This document shows positions 3 to 62,368 of a stretch of DNA of 64,000 nt, in pieces. A program made the translations under genes and the position numbers. The notes beneath the pieces were generated by a model, which was given only the letters and a program-made list of their open reading frames with translations, ran no database searches and had not been told where the DNA came from. Within the stretch, counting starts at the first letter, position 1; each line of letters begins with the position of its first letter. The stretch comes from an uncultured Candidatus Saccharibacteria bacterium (GTDB lineage: Bacteria; Patescibacteriota; Minisyncoccia; Phycocordibacterales; 2-02-FULL-43-11), in contig CAYGDO010000001.1 of the NCBI GenBank assembly GCA_964348785.1, forward strand, positions 120,369 through 184,368. The letters run 5' to 3'.

Positions 3-608
3 GCCTCCCCCATCGCTGCGGCCCTTGTCACATTAACAAAAGCCCAAAAGATTGCTGGTTGTGTTTTAGCGAACATTGGTTCCGAGACAGTTTCCATTGT
101 TGTTTATGAAGATAACAAACCAATTTCCCTAGAAGTCTTTCCAATCGGTGGTTCTGATATAACAAACGACATAGCACTAGGTCTCCGAATTTCCATAGAA
201 GAAGCAGAAGATGTAAAAAAAGGTAGTATCGTCGGAGTAAATTACCCAAGAAAAAAACTTGATGAAATTGTTTCAGCAAGACTTGGAGACATCTTCGAAC
301 TTATTGAGGCCCATCTTAAAAAAATCGGAAAAAATGGAATTTTACCTGCCGGCATAATAATAACCGGGGGCGGTTCAAGTATTGAAACAATTGATTCGTT
401 AGCCAAATCATCACTAAGAATTCCATCAAAAATTGGAGCTATAACATTTGGTGAGAGCAACCGAGGACAAATAAAAGATGCTTCGTGGTCTGTTGCTTAT
501 GGACTATGCCTGGTTGGTTTTGAAAATGAAGATGAAGGCACTCACAATTTTGGAGTAATAAAAAAAACTACAGATATTTTAGGTTGGTTCAAACAGTTCT
601 TACCGTAA
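3..608 (+). CDS. ftsA: Cell division protein FtsA, C-terminal part (5' end lies outside the window)
   Basis: Frame-3 translation ...FPIGGSDITNDIALGLRISIEEAEDVKKG...IIITGGGSS... matches the actin-like FtsA C-terminal domain. TAA stop at 606-608. Lies directly upstream of ftsZ. Confidence 0.85.
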   Translation, partial: ASPIAAALVTLTKAQKIAGCVLANIGSETVSIVVYEDNKPISLEVFPIGGSDITNDIALGLRISIEEAEDVKKGSIVGVNYPRKKLDEIVSARLGDIFELIEAHLKKIGKNGILPAGIIITGGGSSIETIDSLAKSSLRIPSKIGAITFGESNRGQIKDASWSVAYGLCLVGFENEDEGTHNFGVIKKTTDILGWFKQFLP

Positions 609-723
609 TCCCGTTAGAAGTCACGGACACCTAATCTAGAGCAAGTAACATTTTTAAAGATTGATTTAAGTCTAAAAATAATCAAACGTAGACATCTGGT
701 CCGTGTCCTATTTCTAACGGAAT
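607..723. mobile_element. MITE-like inverted-repeat element, copy A (TIR aatcccgttagaagtcacggacacc ... ggtccgtgtcctatttctaacgg)
   Basis: Imperfect 20-25 nt inverted repeats flank an ~85 nt AT-rich spacer. The left arm (607-624) is an 18/18 reverse-complement match to the right arm of copy B at 52805-52822. Confidence 0.45.
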
Positions 724-773
724 AAAAAAACGCCTTCCCTTCCAGAAAGACGTGATCGCCAACAAGGCCTACG

Positions 774-13186: not shown

Positions 13187-13492
13187 TGGTGCCGAGGGCC
13201 GGGCTCGAACCGGCGACCCCATGCTCTTCCGTATACATCAAATTATTTCAATATGATGCTTGGACTATCTCATTATCCTTTTGAAAGGATATCGGGCGCT
13301 AGTACAGGATTATTGTTGGGACTCACCTGTTAGTCTCTACACCTTCCAAGAAACTTTTAACCCTTCTTGGCTTGGCTCGGGATTGTCCATATTACTATGA
13401 GTTTTCCCCGAATTCACCCAATTTGCTTTACCTATTACTAGATAAAGGCCCGAAGATTCAGGCACATGCTCTACCAACTGAGCTACCTCGGC
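13187..13492 (-). tRNA. tRNA-Phe (anticodon GAA) interrupted by a group I intron. Exons about 13460-13492 and 13187-13229; CCA encoded.
   Basis: 5' exon GCCGAGGTAGCTCAGTTGGTAGAGCATGTGCCT and 3' exon GAAGAGCATGGGGTCGCCGGTTCGAGCCCGGCCCTCGGCACCA assemble into a canonical 76-nt tRNA-Phe with loop CUGAAGA, G37 and A73. Confidence 0.8.
13230..13459 (-). ncRNA. Group I intron (IC3-like, about 230 nt) in the anticodon loop of tRNA-Phe
   Basis: Contains the conserved IC3 core GGACAATCCCGAGCCAAGCC (like CAAUCCUGAGCCAAGCC in the cyanobacterial tRNA-Leu intron) and GGTGTAGAGACTAACAGG (like GUGUAGAGACUAGACGG in the Azoarcus tRNA-Ile intron). U at exon position -1 and G at the intron 3' end are consistent with group I splice sites. 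The exact boundary is ambiguous by 1-3 nt. Confidence 0.75.
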
Positions 13493-28798: not shown

Positions 28799-29425
28799 CT
28801 ATTTACTATCAATCCATTTCACCCCAACTTTTTCAAACTGCGTTTTTAAATCTTTTTTCACTTCTTCTAAAAAGTCTTTGAGTTCTGGAAAATGATGGGT
28901 GGCTTCATCGAACGCCACCACTGCCTTGGTCGCATAGTCAGCATGAAATTCTTTTGGAACGTACGCCTCCACTCCTACTTCAGCTATATGAAGAAACCCT
29001 TCAATCTTATCTAATGCCTTCACGAACTTCGCCTCAATAGTTATCTGATCTTCATACTCGCGCCACAAGGCATAAATCCAATCCCCAAAAGGTAGGTCAT
29101 CTGTCATTTCGTGCATGGCTTTTTCTTCCATAACAGCCTTCTCTTCAATTAACTTTTTGCCTTCTAAAATCTGTTCATACGCATCAACGTCACCGGTCTT
29201 CGCTTCAGCTAAGTCGTGCAATAACGCAAGAGCGAGCGTACGATTAATATCTATTCGCACCCGAGATTCAGTTCCAATAATCAACGCCATAAGTCCCAAT
29301 CTCCAAGAGTGTTCAGCGACCGTGTTTTTATTAGCACGCATAGATGAGCCGTATCGCTCGGCTTGTTCTAAGGCTTTACTCCTTTTCAAAAACAAAAGTA
29401 CGTCGTGAATTTTTTGCTGTCTCAT
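28799..29425 (-). CDS. HD-domain 5'-deoxynucleotidase (YfbR-like, HD_3), paralog 1
   Basis: AEHSWRLG ... LLHDLAEAKTGD metal-binding H/HD motifs. 208 aa. About 50% identical to paralog 2. Confidence 0.8.
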   Translation of the reverse strand: MRQQKIHDVLLFLKRSKALEQAERYGSSMRANKNTVAEHSWRLGLMALIIGTESRVRIDINRTLALALLHDLAEAKTGDVDAYEQILEGKKLIEEKAVMEEKAMHEMTDDLPFGDWIYALWREYEDQITIEAKFVKALDKIEGFLHIAEVGVEAYVPKEFHADYATKAVVAFDEATHHFPELKDFLEEVKKDLKTQFEKVGVKWIDSK

Positions 29426-30097: not shown

Positions 30098-30231
30098 ATC
30101 TTTGTTTCTTATTAGCTATCTCCAGCGTGAATTTAGCCAGCCTATTTTTGAATGCACCCGACAGGTAAGGTTAGGGTTCCGAGCATCTATATGGACTATA
30201 GGGTTTAGTATAAAAAATTCAATTAAGGCTT

Positions 30232-30260
30232 GGGTAGTTTGTAAATCTTTAATTTACAAT
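30232..30260. repeat. Palindromic 27-bp element ggtagtTTGTAAATctttaATTTACAA, copy 1 (copy 2 at 32436-32465)
   Basis: 27/28-nt identity between the two copies. Each contains the inverted repeat TTGTAAAT/ATTTACAA. Copy 1 overlaps the last four codons of HD paralog 2. Copy 2 lies in the promoter region of the TrmB-like gene. Confidence 0.6.
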
Positions 30261-30872
30261 GTATTTCACCCCCACTTTTTCAAACTGTGTTTTCAAATCT
30301 TTTTTAATCAGATTAAGTAAATCTTTTACCTCAGGAACATTTTGTACCGCTTGGTCAAAAGCTAATACTGCTCTATCTACATAATATCCATGAAATTCTT
30401 TAGGAATATAAGCTTTTACACCCCGGTCGGCAATATGAATATAAGCTTCTATGCCGTCTAAAGCCGCCACAAATTTGGCTTCTAGGGTTTTATGATCCTC
30501 GTATTCATTCCACAAATCAAATATCTCTTTGCCAAAAGATAAATCTCGAGTTATAGCTTTCATAGCTAGTTTTTCTTTTTTATATTTATCTTGAATTAAC
30601 TTTCTTCCTTTAAGAATTTGCTCATAAGCGTCAATGTCGCCCGTCACTGACTCGGCGAGGTCGTGAATAAGGGCGAGCGCCATAGCGTGACTCAAATCAA
30701 TTTTTAGATTGCATTCTTTGGCAATAATAAAAACCATAAGAGTCAATTGCCATGAATGCTCCGCTGTGGTGTCACCATTCTTGCTAAGTGAATAACCATA
30801 TCTAGGGACAGATTTCAACTGGTTGCTACGTTGCAGAAATGTGAAGATATCTTTTACTTTTTGTTCTTTCAT
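30249..30872 (-). CDS. HD-domain 5'-deoxynucleotidase (YfbR-like), paralog 2
   Basis: AEHSWQLT ... LIHDLAESVTGD motifs. The 3' about 55 nt are nearly identical to the 3' end of paralog 1 (…DLKTQFEKVGVK[W/Y]I). Confidence 0.8.
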   Translation of the reverse strand: MKEQKVKDIFTFLQRSNQLKSVPRYGYSLSKNGDTTAEHSWQLTLMVFIIAKECNLKIDLSHAMALALIHDLAESVTGDIDAYEQILKGRKLIQDKYKKEKLAMKAITRDLSFGKEIFDLWNEYEDHKTLEAKFVAALDGIEAYIHIADRGVKAYIPKEFHGYYVDRAVLAFDQAVQNVPEVKDLLNLIKKDLKTQFEKVGVKYIVN

Positions 30873-32268: not shown

Positions 32269-32478
32269 GGTTGCTCCTAGACGGTATCGTCAAGCCAATC
32301 TTGTGCCGGCTTGTTTTGTTTACGTCAAAGAACCTTGTCAATTCATCCACCTGCCTAAAAGACAGACAGATCGGACATCAGTTCTTGACACCCATGTGAA
32401 ATATAGTGTATAATATAAAAAGGTCAATTGAGACATAGGTAGTTTGTAAATCTTCAATTTACAACTTTTTTAACACAT

Positions 32479-52704: not shown

Positions 52705-52825
52705 TTCGTCCCGTTAGAAGTAGGATACAAACAATCAATTTAAGTAACTGATAAATTAATACACTCTCAATAATCAAATCTTCTATTGCGTAAAACTAGT
52801 ATCAGTGACTTCTAACGGGATTGTG
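52705..52825. mobile_element. MITE-like inverted-repeat element, copy B (TIR cccgttagaagt ... acttctaacggg)
   Basis: 12-bp perfect terminal inverted repeat flanking an 86-nt AT-rich spacer. The right arm is the reverse complement of the copy A left arm (18/18). Confidence 0.45.
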
Positions 52826-61151: not shown

Positions 61152-62225
61152 TTAAAACTTAATTATCTTTTCCCAAGCTAAACCCTTTTTACCAAAATGA
61201 CCATAAGAAGCTGTCCCCGAAAATACAGGTTTTCTAAGTTCAAGAAAATCAATAATATTTTTAGGCTTGAAATCAAAATTTTTTAACACGACATGAGACA
61301 AATCATTTCCCTTTTCATCAACCGCTGAAATCATGAGAGGTTCTGCCCTACCAATCGCATAAGCAACTGATACCAAACACTGCTTAGCATATTTATTAGC
61401 AACCAAGTTTTTAGCCACAAATCTAGCCATATAAGCAGCTGATCGATCCACCTTTGTTAAATCTTTACCTGAAAATGCTCCACCGCCATGCTGAATCAAA
61501 CCCCCATAGGTATCCACCATAATTTTTCTACCAGTCAGTCCAGTATCAGCATCAAAACCACCAAGAACAAAAGCCCCTGTTGGATTTACCAAAATTTCAA
61601 CGTTCTTTGCTATTGGTTTCCCTGTAATTTTTTTAACTATCGGCTTTATTAATTTTTCAGTTACCGTCTTTTTTATTTCATCTTGATTAACATTTTTATC
61701 ATGCTGACAACTGACCAAAACCGACTGCAACTTACCATTTTTAAAAGTAACTTGGGTCTTACCATCCGGCCTTAACCATTTCACCTTTTTACTCTTTCTC
61801 AAATCTTCCAAACCTTTTGAAAGAGCGTGGGACAAAACAACGGCTATAGGCATCTTTTCTTCAGTCTCATCAGACGCGAAGCCATACATGATCCCTTGGT
61901 CACCAGCTCCGCCAGTATCAACTCCCATGGCAATATCAGGAGATTGCTCTGAAATTACGACTTGAATTTTTAAAGGATTTTCATAACCAATATTCTTATA
62001 AACCTCTTCAGCAATCTTTTTATAATCAACTTTAGCTTTTGTTGTGACTTCTCCCCCAATAACCAGATGTCCATGACTACCAAAAGTCTCAACGGCCACC
62101 CTACTAAAAGAATCCTGTCGCAAACATTCATCTAAAATAGCGTCAGATATCTGATCACATACTTTGTCTGGATGACCAGACGTGACACTCTCGACTGTAT
62201 ACGTACCTTTTTTTGAATAAAACAT
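61152..62225 (-). CDS. metK: S-adenosylmethionine synthetase
   Basis: GHPDKVCDQISDAILD and GGGAFSGKD motifs. Start set at 62225 (MFYSKKG), because the track start 62249 lies inside the riboswitch terminator stem. Confidence 0.9.
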   Translation of the reverse strand: MFYSKKGTYTVESVTSGHPDKVCDQISDAILDECLRQDSFSRVAVETFGSHGHLVIGGEVTTKAKVDYKKIAEEVYKNIGYENPLKIQVVISEQSPDIAMGVDTGGAGDQGIMYGFASDETEEKMPIAVVLSHALSKGLEDLRKSKKVKWLRPDGKTQVTFKNGKLQSVLVSCQHDKNVNQDEIKKTVTEKLIKPIVKKITGKPIAKNVEILVNPTGAFVLGGFDADTGLTGRKIMVDTYGGLIQHGGGAFSGKDLTKVDRSAAYMARFVAKNLVANKYAKQCLVSVAYAIGRAEPLMISAVDEKGNDLSHVVLKNFDFKPKNIIDFLELRKPVFSGTASYGHFGKKGLAWEKIIKF

Positions 62226-62231
62226 TTTTGT

Positions 62232-62368
62232 AAAAAAATAACCCGCCATGCGGGAAGAAAAATGACTAGTTATCCTCCCCTAATGGGGCTGGGTTTGGCA
62301 CCTTATTAAAAACAGGTTGCCGGGCGAATCATTGAGCCAGAACTCTCATCGCCACTCTTGATAAATAT
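62232..62368 (-). promoter_or_regulatory. SAM-I (S-box) riboswitch in the metK leader
   Basis: Minus-strand TTATCAAGAGTGGCGATGAGAG..TGGCTCAATGATTCGCCCGGCAACC...GGTGCCAAACCCAGCC matches the SAM-I consensus (YTCTTATCAAGAG.GG.GGAGGGA...GGCCC.ATGA..CC.GCAACC...GGTGC.AA.TCC). Terminator cccgcatggcggg + T-run lies immediately before the ATG. Confidence 0.75.

Follow-up and report, generated by a model that had tools for sequence, protein, structure and literature searches.

Two gene-less inverted-repeat insertions in a Patescibacteria genome and a family whose complete form encodes a GIY-YIG nuclease

Two inverted-repeat elements at ftsA and htrA

We analysed a 64,000-nt stretch of DNA (the window, 64 kb) from an uncultured Candidatus Saccharibacteria bacterium (contig CAYGDO010000001.1, positions 120,369 to 184,368), and within it two short inverted-repeat elements, copies A and B, that an initial annotation made from the letters alone had marked as possible non-autonomous transposons. 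By the homologues of its FtsZ, the organism falls among Paceibacterota/Taylorbacteria-like Patescibacteria. Both elements lie where the annotation had placed them, with their limits now refined to 609-722 and 52709-52820. Copy A begins at 609, directly adjoining the ftsA stop codon TAA (606-608), as had been stated; the further claim that it sits between ftsA and ftsZ needs amending, because a 96-aa minus-strand open reading frame (ORF; 774-1064) with its own terminator (753-730) separates it from ftsZ (1319-2491). Copy B had been described as just upstream of htrA, and about 36 nt do separate it from the likely htrA ATG (52857), but it is also 33 nt from the ATG (52675) of a divergent class I methyltransferase gene on the minus strand, so that it lies between the methyltransferase and the HtrA-like protease. 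Neither copy abuts a start codon, and neither contains an ORF. The features of the two copies, with their terminal inverted repeats (TIRs), are as follows.

609-722, plus strand: copy A, whole element; read on the plus strand, it carries the 4-nt bulge in its 3′ arm
606-608, plus strand: copy A left target duplication, TAA, one A short of TAAA and identical with the ftsA stop codon (empty site in L127)
609-621, plus strand: copy A left TIR, T-CCCGTTAGAAGT, exact 12-mer
622-628 and 699-705, plus strand: copy A inner helix, CACGGAC paired with GTCCGTG in the predicted fold
706-709, plus strand: copy A bulge, TCCT, 4 nt, in the predicted fold
710-722, plus strand: copy A right TIR, ATTTCTAACGGA-A (also written ATTTCTAACGGa-A), degenerate
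723-726, plus strand: copy A right target duplication, TAAA (empty site in L127)
52709-52820, minus strand: copy B, whole element; read on the minus strand, it carries the bulge in its 3′ arm
52705-52708, plus strand: copy B left target duplication, TTCG, diverged (empty site in L133)
52709-52721, plus strand: copy B TIR, T-CCCGTTAGAAGT, exact 12-mer
52808-52820, plus strand: copy B TIR, ACTTCTAACGGG-A, perfect complement of 52709-52721, giving a perfect 12-bp inverted repeat
52821-52824, plus strand: copy B right target duplication, TTGT, diverged (empty site in L133)

Each copy spans about 113 bp and ends in CCCGTTAGAAGT/ACTTCTAACGGG, and the two lie in opposite relative orientation; the exact 12-mer is confined to them within the window. 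The right repeat of copy A departs from the 12-mer at two positions, one giving a G·T pair and the other a G-to-A change at the last G (721). The 18-mer that had been reported as shared perfectly in opposite orientation, AATCCCGTTAGAAGTCAC, is indeed found at 607-624 (plus) and 52805-52822 (minus), and in 0 of 100 shuffles. When copy A (minus strand) is compared with copy B (plus strand), about 25 nt can be aligned at either end and the AT-rich interiors of about 60 nt cannot. The spacer motif ataatcaaa, which had been listed as part of the element, is on the same strand in both copies although their ends are opposite; its sharing is therefore most likely chance, and it is not a feature of the wider family described below.

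Folding the sequences predicts long hairpins for both strands of both copies (z = −3.9 to −4.7 against shuffles), in which a 12-bp outer helix is followed by four bulged nucleotides on one arm and then by a second helix. The sequence of this second helix differs from copy to copy and yet stays complementary, being CACGGAC/GTCCGTG in A and GATAC/GTATC in B. Other copies of the family share the architecture with complementary helices of their own (CGCGGTC/GACCGCG, CGCGATC/GATCGCG).

The 96-aa ORF beside copy A is itself compositionally distinct, with about 50% G+C in a region of about 36%, and has no match in Pfam or PHROG. Relatives carry an ORF of 104-135 aa at this position, and the window ORF holds a 12-mer (832-843) that is one mismatch away from the element repeat.

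Both copies are insertions

Copies A and B are insertions. At the same end of ftsA, copy A is absent from a relative (locus L127) whose FtsZ is 91% identical: the site reads TTGCC-A-TAAA-AAAATCG there and TTACC-G-TAA-[T CCCG...CGGa A]-TAAA-AAAACGCC in the window. These junctions fit an insertion at a TAAA overlapping the ftsA stop codon, after which the left A would have been lost and the right repeat would have acquired its G-to-A change. Copy B is absent from the same relative (locus L133; methyltransferase 78% identical), where the htrA–methyltransferase spacer measures 66 nt against 181 nt in the window. On the plus strand the L133 site reads CATA-A-TTTG-G-AAAA and the window site CATA-A-TTCG-[T..A]-TTGT-G-AAAA, so that the single ATTTGG of L133 corresponds to ATTCGT[element]ATTGTG.

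Among further relatives, L134 retains a homologue of copy B, and in L135 copy B is reduced to a solo repeat remnant, CCCAGTTAGAAGTC. The diverged duplications and the mutated repeat of copy A indicate that both copies are old, and the empty sites, the solo remnant and the surviving homologue that they predate the split from some relatives and are decaying. They are probably inert passengers. Beside the copy B homologue, L134 also carries an extra hairpin insertion of about 41 nt (190-270), CTGTAGTAG...CACTACGGG, with an end that is different but similar-looking.

A dispersed family in Patescibacteria

A census of copies had been proposed as a check of the transposon reading, and it bears the reading out. 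Searching one-genome-per-species contigs for the pattern CCCGTTAGAA-N72-102-TTCTAACGGG located the family at at least 120 loci in species-representative genomes, with at least 120 more in metagenomes. Most loci belong to Patescibacteria (the candidate phyla radiation, CPR), including Saccharibacteria, Nomura-, Kaiser-, Pacei- and Jorgensenbacteria and others, and elements also occur on long contigs labelled Deltaproteobacteria, Planctomycetota, Omnitrophota and others. Viral contigs were almost empty, with 2 matches to the element pattern and 0 to the junction pattern described below. The retrieved set comprises 128 elements of 92-121 bp; outside this size range there are longer elements, and shorter ones that at the extreme consist of a 27-nt hairpin only.

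The ends of the family are TIRs of 13-15 bp, Y-CCCGTTAGAA-NN ... NN-TTCTAACGGG-R. The inverted repeat reaches one base past CCCG, since positions −1 and +1 are complementary in 124 of 127 elements (T·A in 66, C·G in 56), and covariation extends along the repeat, with position 11 complementary in 118/127 and position 12 in 112/127, several pair types occurring at each.

The proposed check for target-site duplications was likewise positive. Flanking 4-mers are identical in 77 of 127 elements and in 136 of 181 of an independent metagenome set, and the duplicated 4-mer is TNNA (TGAA/TTCA, TAAA/TTTA, TCAA/TTGA). When six flanking bases are compared, the inner four match at 73-81% per position and the outer two at 57% and 41%. 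A first model, a 6-bp duplication RTNNAY, was dropped for a 4-bp TNNA plus one extra repeat base, as its outer positions match far less. Only the 4-bp model explains the recurrent 'mismatched' flanks ATGAAC/.../GTGAAT, which follow from a target A/TGAA/T and repeat termini C...G.

Near-identical copies show amplification within a genome. L120 holds three copies, 94-96% identical, at unrelated sites whose flanks are at random-level identity, and this amplification is recent; in L195, two copies match at 110 of 115 positions. Nested insertions occur as well (L093).

The complete form encodes a GIY-YIG nuclease

The initial annotation had also proposed looking for an insertion sequence (IS) or transposase with matching ends. 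Among all fetched loci (about 1.9 Mb), we looked for pairs of repeats with matching flanks and a spacing of 250-4000 bp. A partner with identical ends was found, but it encodes no known class of transposase: the complete form is 270-283 bp long and carries one ORF, for an 85-86-aa GIY-YIG nuclease (Pfam PF01541, E 1e-16). This is the only ORF seen between a matching repeat pair with matching flanks, and with PF01541 alone in that position the family falls into none of the known IS classes (DDE, DEDD, HUH, serine, tyrosine). Independent examples in which the repeats are exact and the flanks TNNA are L236, L147, L193, L066, L256, L266 and L276. Clustering of ORFs in about 0.95 Mb of flanks revealed no recurrent transposase, integrase or recombinase.

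The gene is built into the repeats. The first codon of its ORF lies 8-18 nt into the left repeat or is a flanking host ATG, and the ORF stops at the TAA of TTCTAACGGG. Of the best 120 nuclease clusters, 103 end in F, consistent with the TTC-TAA that the repeat encodes, and 20 have N-termini that read through the repeat, MxPVR(N/S).. or ..PLE(T/A/V)..; several of these read-through nucleases lack a methionine of their own, so that they rely on a flanking start codon. With 3658 clusters at E ≤ 1e-10, nearly all of 85-86 aa, the protein family is both large and uniform in length; in their source records the proteins are called 'GIY-YIG nuclease family protein' or, mistakenly, 'excinuclease ABC subunit C'. 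Repeat variants include CCCGTTAGAA, CCCGTTAGAG, CCCTGTGAAAT and CCCCGCACC, and diverged GIY-YIG ORFs are accompanied by other repeats of the same style (CCCTGTGAAAT in L181, CCCCGCACCTTTTAAGC in L180).

These proteins consist of the GIY-YIG catalytic domain alone, with weak similarity to the PHROG family 'homing endonuclease' and to an NCBIfam model for group I intron endonucleases. The nearest solved structures are UPF0213/COG2827 proteins, PDB 1ZG2 (BH0048, E 0.0014) and 1YWL (EF2693, E 0.25).

Given gene-carrying elements with identical ends, the gene-less window copies are best seen as non-autonomous derivatives, that is, miniature inverted-repeat transposable elements (MITEs). They have TIRs, target duplications with empty sites, no gene and a partner with the same ends, which together support the non-autonomous transposon first suggested for them.

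An unlikely alternative is that the copies are MITEs of an unsampled conventional DDE-type IS, the GIY-YIG ORF being a frequent passenger or domesticated cargo. DDE transposons, for example of the IS5/PIF type, typically have TIRs and a 4-bp duplication, so the element ends fit this account; the nuclease belongs to a class that, to our knowledge, has no known strand-transfer chemistry, and its role in mobility is putative. Against a passenger stand its place as the sole ORF between matching repeats and flanks, the building of its start and stop into the repeats, the size and uniform length of the protein family, and the pairing of diverged nucleases with different repeats.

Several gene-carrying loci have features of their own. 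In L193 (3293-3573) the element lies in the 5′ end of a tRNA gene, where the GGG of the right repeat and a duplicated CCATCGG rebuild the acceptor stem. Loci L256-L265, from ten samples, hold two tandem GIY-YIG elements (for example L256, 846-1437) inside a diversity-generating retroelement, in the order Lcl_C-type target gene, GIY-YIG twice, bAvd and reverse transcriptase. In proteins P0312 and P0351, minimal hairpin elements of about 27 nt are nested in frame inside the nuclease ORF and translated as ..NPVRS(L/I)ASNG..

Many copies sit on start codons

Across the family, 66 of 128 elements have an ORF of at least 80 codons whose first base directly follows ...CGGG, and of 256 element sides 82 are open in frame 0 but just 16 in each of the other two frames; these and the orientation counts include related copies, which are not independent events, and are indicative only. 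The downstream genes are unrelated housekeeping genes, among them topoisomerase (topA), ATP synthase alpha/beta, FtsW, ClpP, UvrD, PGK, aminoacyl-tRNA synthetases, LepA, L1 and NusA.

The sequence of the junctions accounts for the frame. Insertion at A/TGAA/N gives ATG-AAY-CCC-GTT-AGA... on the left and ...TTC-TAA-CGGG-RTG-AAN on the right, so that the terminal purine of the repeat and the duplication rebuild the host ATG or GTG, 4 nt after the element's TAA. The left start codon runs in frame into the repeat (M-N/S-P-V-R...) and the nuclease. The right end would bring ribosomes back to the host start whichever frame they read: in one frame translation ends at the TAA, 4 nt ahead of the start codon, in another at the overlapping RTGA, and the third continues in phase into the host gene. 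Of the left repeat's frames, one contains a TAG. At L276 (1160-1500) the host gene, of 105 aa, used to overlap the end of hisS; with an element on the host gene's start codon, hisS now stops at the left-repeat TAG with its C-terminus altered by a few residues only.

Upstream of the left ATG, −10-like hexamers peak at 6-7 nt (14 of 66, against a background of about 1 per position), and Shine-Dalgarno-like motifs are rare (6 of 66). This gives many hosts the look of leaderless genes, with the element now at the beginning of the transcript. The left-ATG frame is open through the whole element in 27/66 cases; the two remaining sense frames are open in 7/66 and 0/66, and antisense controls in 11/66. 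Orientation relative to the gene is biased 31:4. Tolerance alone does not explain the placement, because unoccupied ATGA(A/G) sites number 108 at gene starts and 330 in intergenic DNA, so that starts make up only about 25% of the non-disrupting sites. We also considered in-situ decay of gene-carrying copies as the source of the start-codon copies; this is countered by L120, whose near-identical gene-less copies lie at three different gene starts, which indicates that gene-less elements insert there as such.

At several copies (L020 7369-7500, L118 5050-5180, L055 1796-1900 and L098 3953-4020) the duplicated flank is GTTGAC/ATTGAC, the −35 box of a textbook promoter, TTGACA-17-TATAAT, that follows immediately downstream; here a promoter element is preserved instead of a start codon.

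Such placement raises the question of a structured cis-regulatory RNA or terminator, an immobile hairpin of 5′ or 3′ untranslated regions that would act on RNA stability, on attenuation or on translation; the initial annotation's other suggestion, a terminator or a regulatory module, had been of this kind. The strong hairpins on both strands, the many copies between a −10 box and a start codon, the orientation bias and the open left-ATG frame would all suit it. As an explanation of the elements it is nonetheless decidedly improbable. Rfam 15 gave no match at the gathering score in the window and 18 loci, with E 0.51 for the best match at a relaxed threshold; the downstream genes are functionally unrelated, as are the interiors of the copies; and the 4-bp duplications, the nested and tandem insertions and the protein-coding form speak of DNA mobility. 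For the window copies in particular, a terminator scan gave no terminator-like site and no T-tract after A or B, neither is at a start codon, and both are missing in close relatives, so the suggestion finds no support there. Side effects of inserted copies at the RNA level are possible.

Head-to-head junctions and tandem arrays

At least 120 metagenome loci contain head-to-head junctions TTCTAACGGG-N6-CCCGTTAGAA. Almost all are tandem elements that share one flank, in arrays of two to four with a common flanking 6-mer, which is what repeated insertion into one TNNA would give.

The junctions form a common 26-bp palindromic site, often in arrays, and could be read as sites of site-specific recombination (integron attC-like, Xer/dif-like or invertible-promoter repeats) at which the interior of about 90 bp is excised or inverted. 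GTTAGAA/TTCTAAC resemble the integron core sites GTTRRRY/RYYYAAC, and the stem, asymmetric bulge and variable tip recall a folded attC. This reading is very improbable: relative to attC the core order is inverted, GTTAGAA lying 5′ and TTCTAAC 3′ on both strands, and on this ground we rejected attC; the interiors are too short for cassettes; about 0.95 Mb of flanks hold no recurrent integrase or recombinase; no locus was found in both orientations; and insertion at the same TNNA accounts for the junctions. An invertible promoter was rejected since the promoters lie outside the repeats. Chance likeness of two AT-rich intergenic hairpins, for which one might cite the mere two copies in the window and their unrelated interiors, is already refuted by the 18-mer that no shuffle produced and by the hundreds of elements elsewhere with the same ends.

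A candidate mobilising nuclease and its proposed mechanism

We conclude that copies A and B are very probably gene-less MITEs of a miniature cut-or-copy family defined by its TIR, its TNNA duplication and a nuclease-coding complete form of about 270-283 bp. From the association of gene and repeats we infer that the nuclease mobilises the family. It would recognise the repeat pair, as a duplex or an extruded hairpin, and cut at repeat boundaries and TNNA targets, after which host repair or ligation would finish the insertion; this mode of cutting and joining is our proposal. Gene-less copies would be moved in trans. By this route copy A would have entered the TAAA at the end of ftsA, and copy B the htrA–methyltransferase spacer, upstream of the methyltransferase promoter.

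For copies on start codons, we suggest that the element hitch-hikes on translation, using the host promoter and ATG for its own ORF and returning ribosomes to the host gene via the stop–restart junction TAA-CGGG-RTG, which the terminal repeat and the target duplication form. Judging from these junction sequences, translation of element and host gene may be coupled.

Several observations weigh against the reading of the window copies and the family as nuclease-driven elements. Neither window copy has an intact duplication (TAA/TAAA for A, TTCG/TTGT for B), and the 64 kb hold just two copies, alike only at their ends, with no GIY-YIG gene detected by tblastn; the Pfam scan of window ORFs covers the best 25 of 96 families and does not exclude a transposase elsewhere in the window. 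The gene-carrying copy in L193 is flanked by a 7-bp repeat instead of a 4-bp one. Some non-CPR assignments depend on metagenome bins and may be mis-binned, and related copies enter the statistics on frame, orientation and placement. The tie between nuclease and mobility is associative, no module for DNA binding or strand transfer is obvious in the 86-aa catalytic domain, and we know of no GIY-YIG transposase that has been characterised.

More tentatively, and with slightly less than even confidence, we propose that the family represents an unrecognised class of prokaryotic transposable element, the smallest autonomous one known (about 280 bp), in which a bare 86-aa GIY-YIG domain is the sole mobility protein and which evolved as a start-codon translational hitch-hiker. 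Our literature search found no bacterial element with TIRs and a target duplication whose sole gene is a GIY-YIG nuclease, although papers beyond the searched library may exist, and the repeat string matched only unrelated primers and plasmids. In one report, GIY-YIG proteins are merely listed among genes transferred from Patescibacteria (PMC12455944). The family thus appears undescribed, with unusual properties; the two window copies are themselves ordinary decayed passengers.

If the link between nuclease and mobility holds, small proteins annotated in Patescibacteria as 'GIY-YIG nuclease family protein' or 'excinuclease ABC subunit C' would in thousands of cases be products of mobile-element genes, and prokaryotic DNA transposition would gain a new chemistry, from a nuclease class that is not known to drive it. 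An 86-aa enzyme with a defined 13-bp site would also be attractive as a minimal sequence- or structure-specific nuclease, and placement on the starts of essential genes (topA, atpA/D, ftsW, clpP, aminoacyl-tRNA synthetases) would lead to predictions on leaderless initiation and stop–restart coupling. For annotation, the elements alter gene starts, from ATG to GTG or by spurious N-terminal extensions such as MNPVRN..., and they can mislead binning and the inference of horizontal transfer. Within the window the meaning is modest: two decayed passengers, of which A adjoins the ftsA stop codon and B occupies a divergent promoter region.

Comparison with known systems

Correia elements of Neisseria, RUP of pneumococcus and ERIC of enterobacteria resemble the family in size (about 100-150 bp), TIRs, a short duplication and the lack of a gene, in their dispersal between genes and in being co-transcribed with neighbours as hairpins. 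They duplicate TA and are tied to DDE IS elements (RUP to IS630-Spn1) or have no known partner, whereas the present family has a 280-bp GIY-YIG-only partner, a TNNA duplication and half of its copies on start codons. REP/REPIN sequences with their RAYT genes share paired inverted repeats, hairpins of about 100 nt, ends more conserved than the interior, and, at least putatively in our family, mobilisation by a small single-domain nuclease whose gene lies between the repeats. The RAYT enzyme, however, is a Y1 HUH nuclease and not GIY-YIG; the repeat arm described here is not a REP-type palindrome with a GTAG head, and neither a 4-bp duplication nor start-codon placement is a REPIN feature. The difference in enzyme class sets the family outside each of these named REPIN/RAYT and MITE/IS families despite similar workings.

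Rickettsia palindromic elements are likewise palindromic, mobile, found in reduced genomes and tolerated at coding sequences with reading frames kept, but they lie in frame inside genes and have no known enzyme, while our elements lie at a start or stop codon, rebuild that codon and have a nuclease-coding form. GIY-YIG homing endonucleases (I-TevI, the T4 Seg proteins) also place this catalytic domain in a selfish mobile gene; they have a long DNA-binding domain, one cognate allele and no terminal repeats or duplication, in contrast to a catalytic domain alone, with repeats and TNNA, at hundreds of unrelated sites. UPF0213/COG2827 proteins (1ZG2 BH0048, 1YWL EF2693) match the family nuclease in size and single-domain build; they are structural-genomics proteins for which we found no report of flanking inverted repeats or mobility. 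Integron attC sites share an imperfect inverted repeat, an asymmetric bulge, a variable tip and near-identical core heptamers, but their cores run 5′-RYYYAAC...GTTRRRY-3′, the inverse of the order here, where there is also no integrase and no cassette.

Other features of the window

Elsewhere in the window, a tRNA gene at 13192-13491 (minus strand) has a group I intron in its anticodon loop, between the 5′ half GCCGAGGTAGCTCAGTTGGTAGAGCATGTGCCTGAA and the 3′ half GGGGTCGCCGGTTCGAGCCCGGCCCTCGGCA. The intron matches Rfam RF00028 at 13241-13469 with 70 bits, and the tRNA was not called by ARAGORN. An S-adenosylmethionine (SAM) riboswitch (RF00162, 62.9 bits; 62267-62367, minus strand) lies directly upstream of the S-adenosylmethionine synthetase gene (61155-62249, minus strand).

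The window also contains longer repeats. Two HD-domain genes resembling the 5′-deoxynucleotidase YfbR (28802-29425 and 30252-30872, both minus strand) are paralogous, which explains the direct repeats at 28810-28858 and 30257-30305. A further repeat pair of 86 nt is found at 30184-30269 and 32389-32474.

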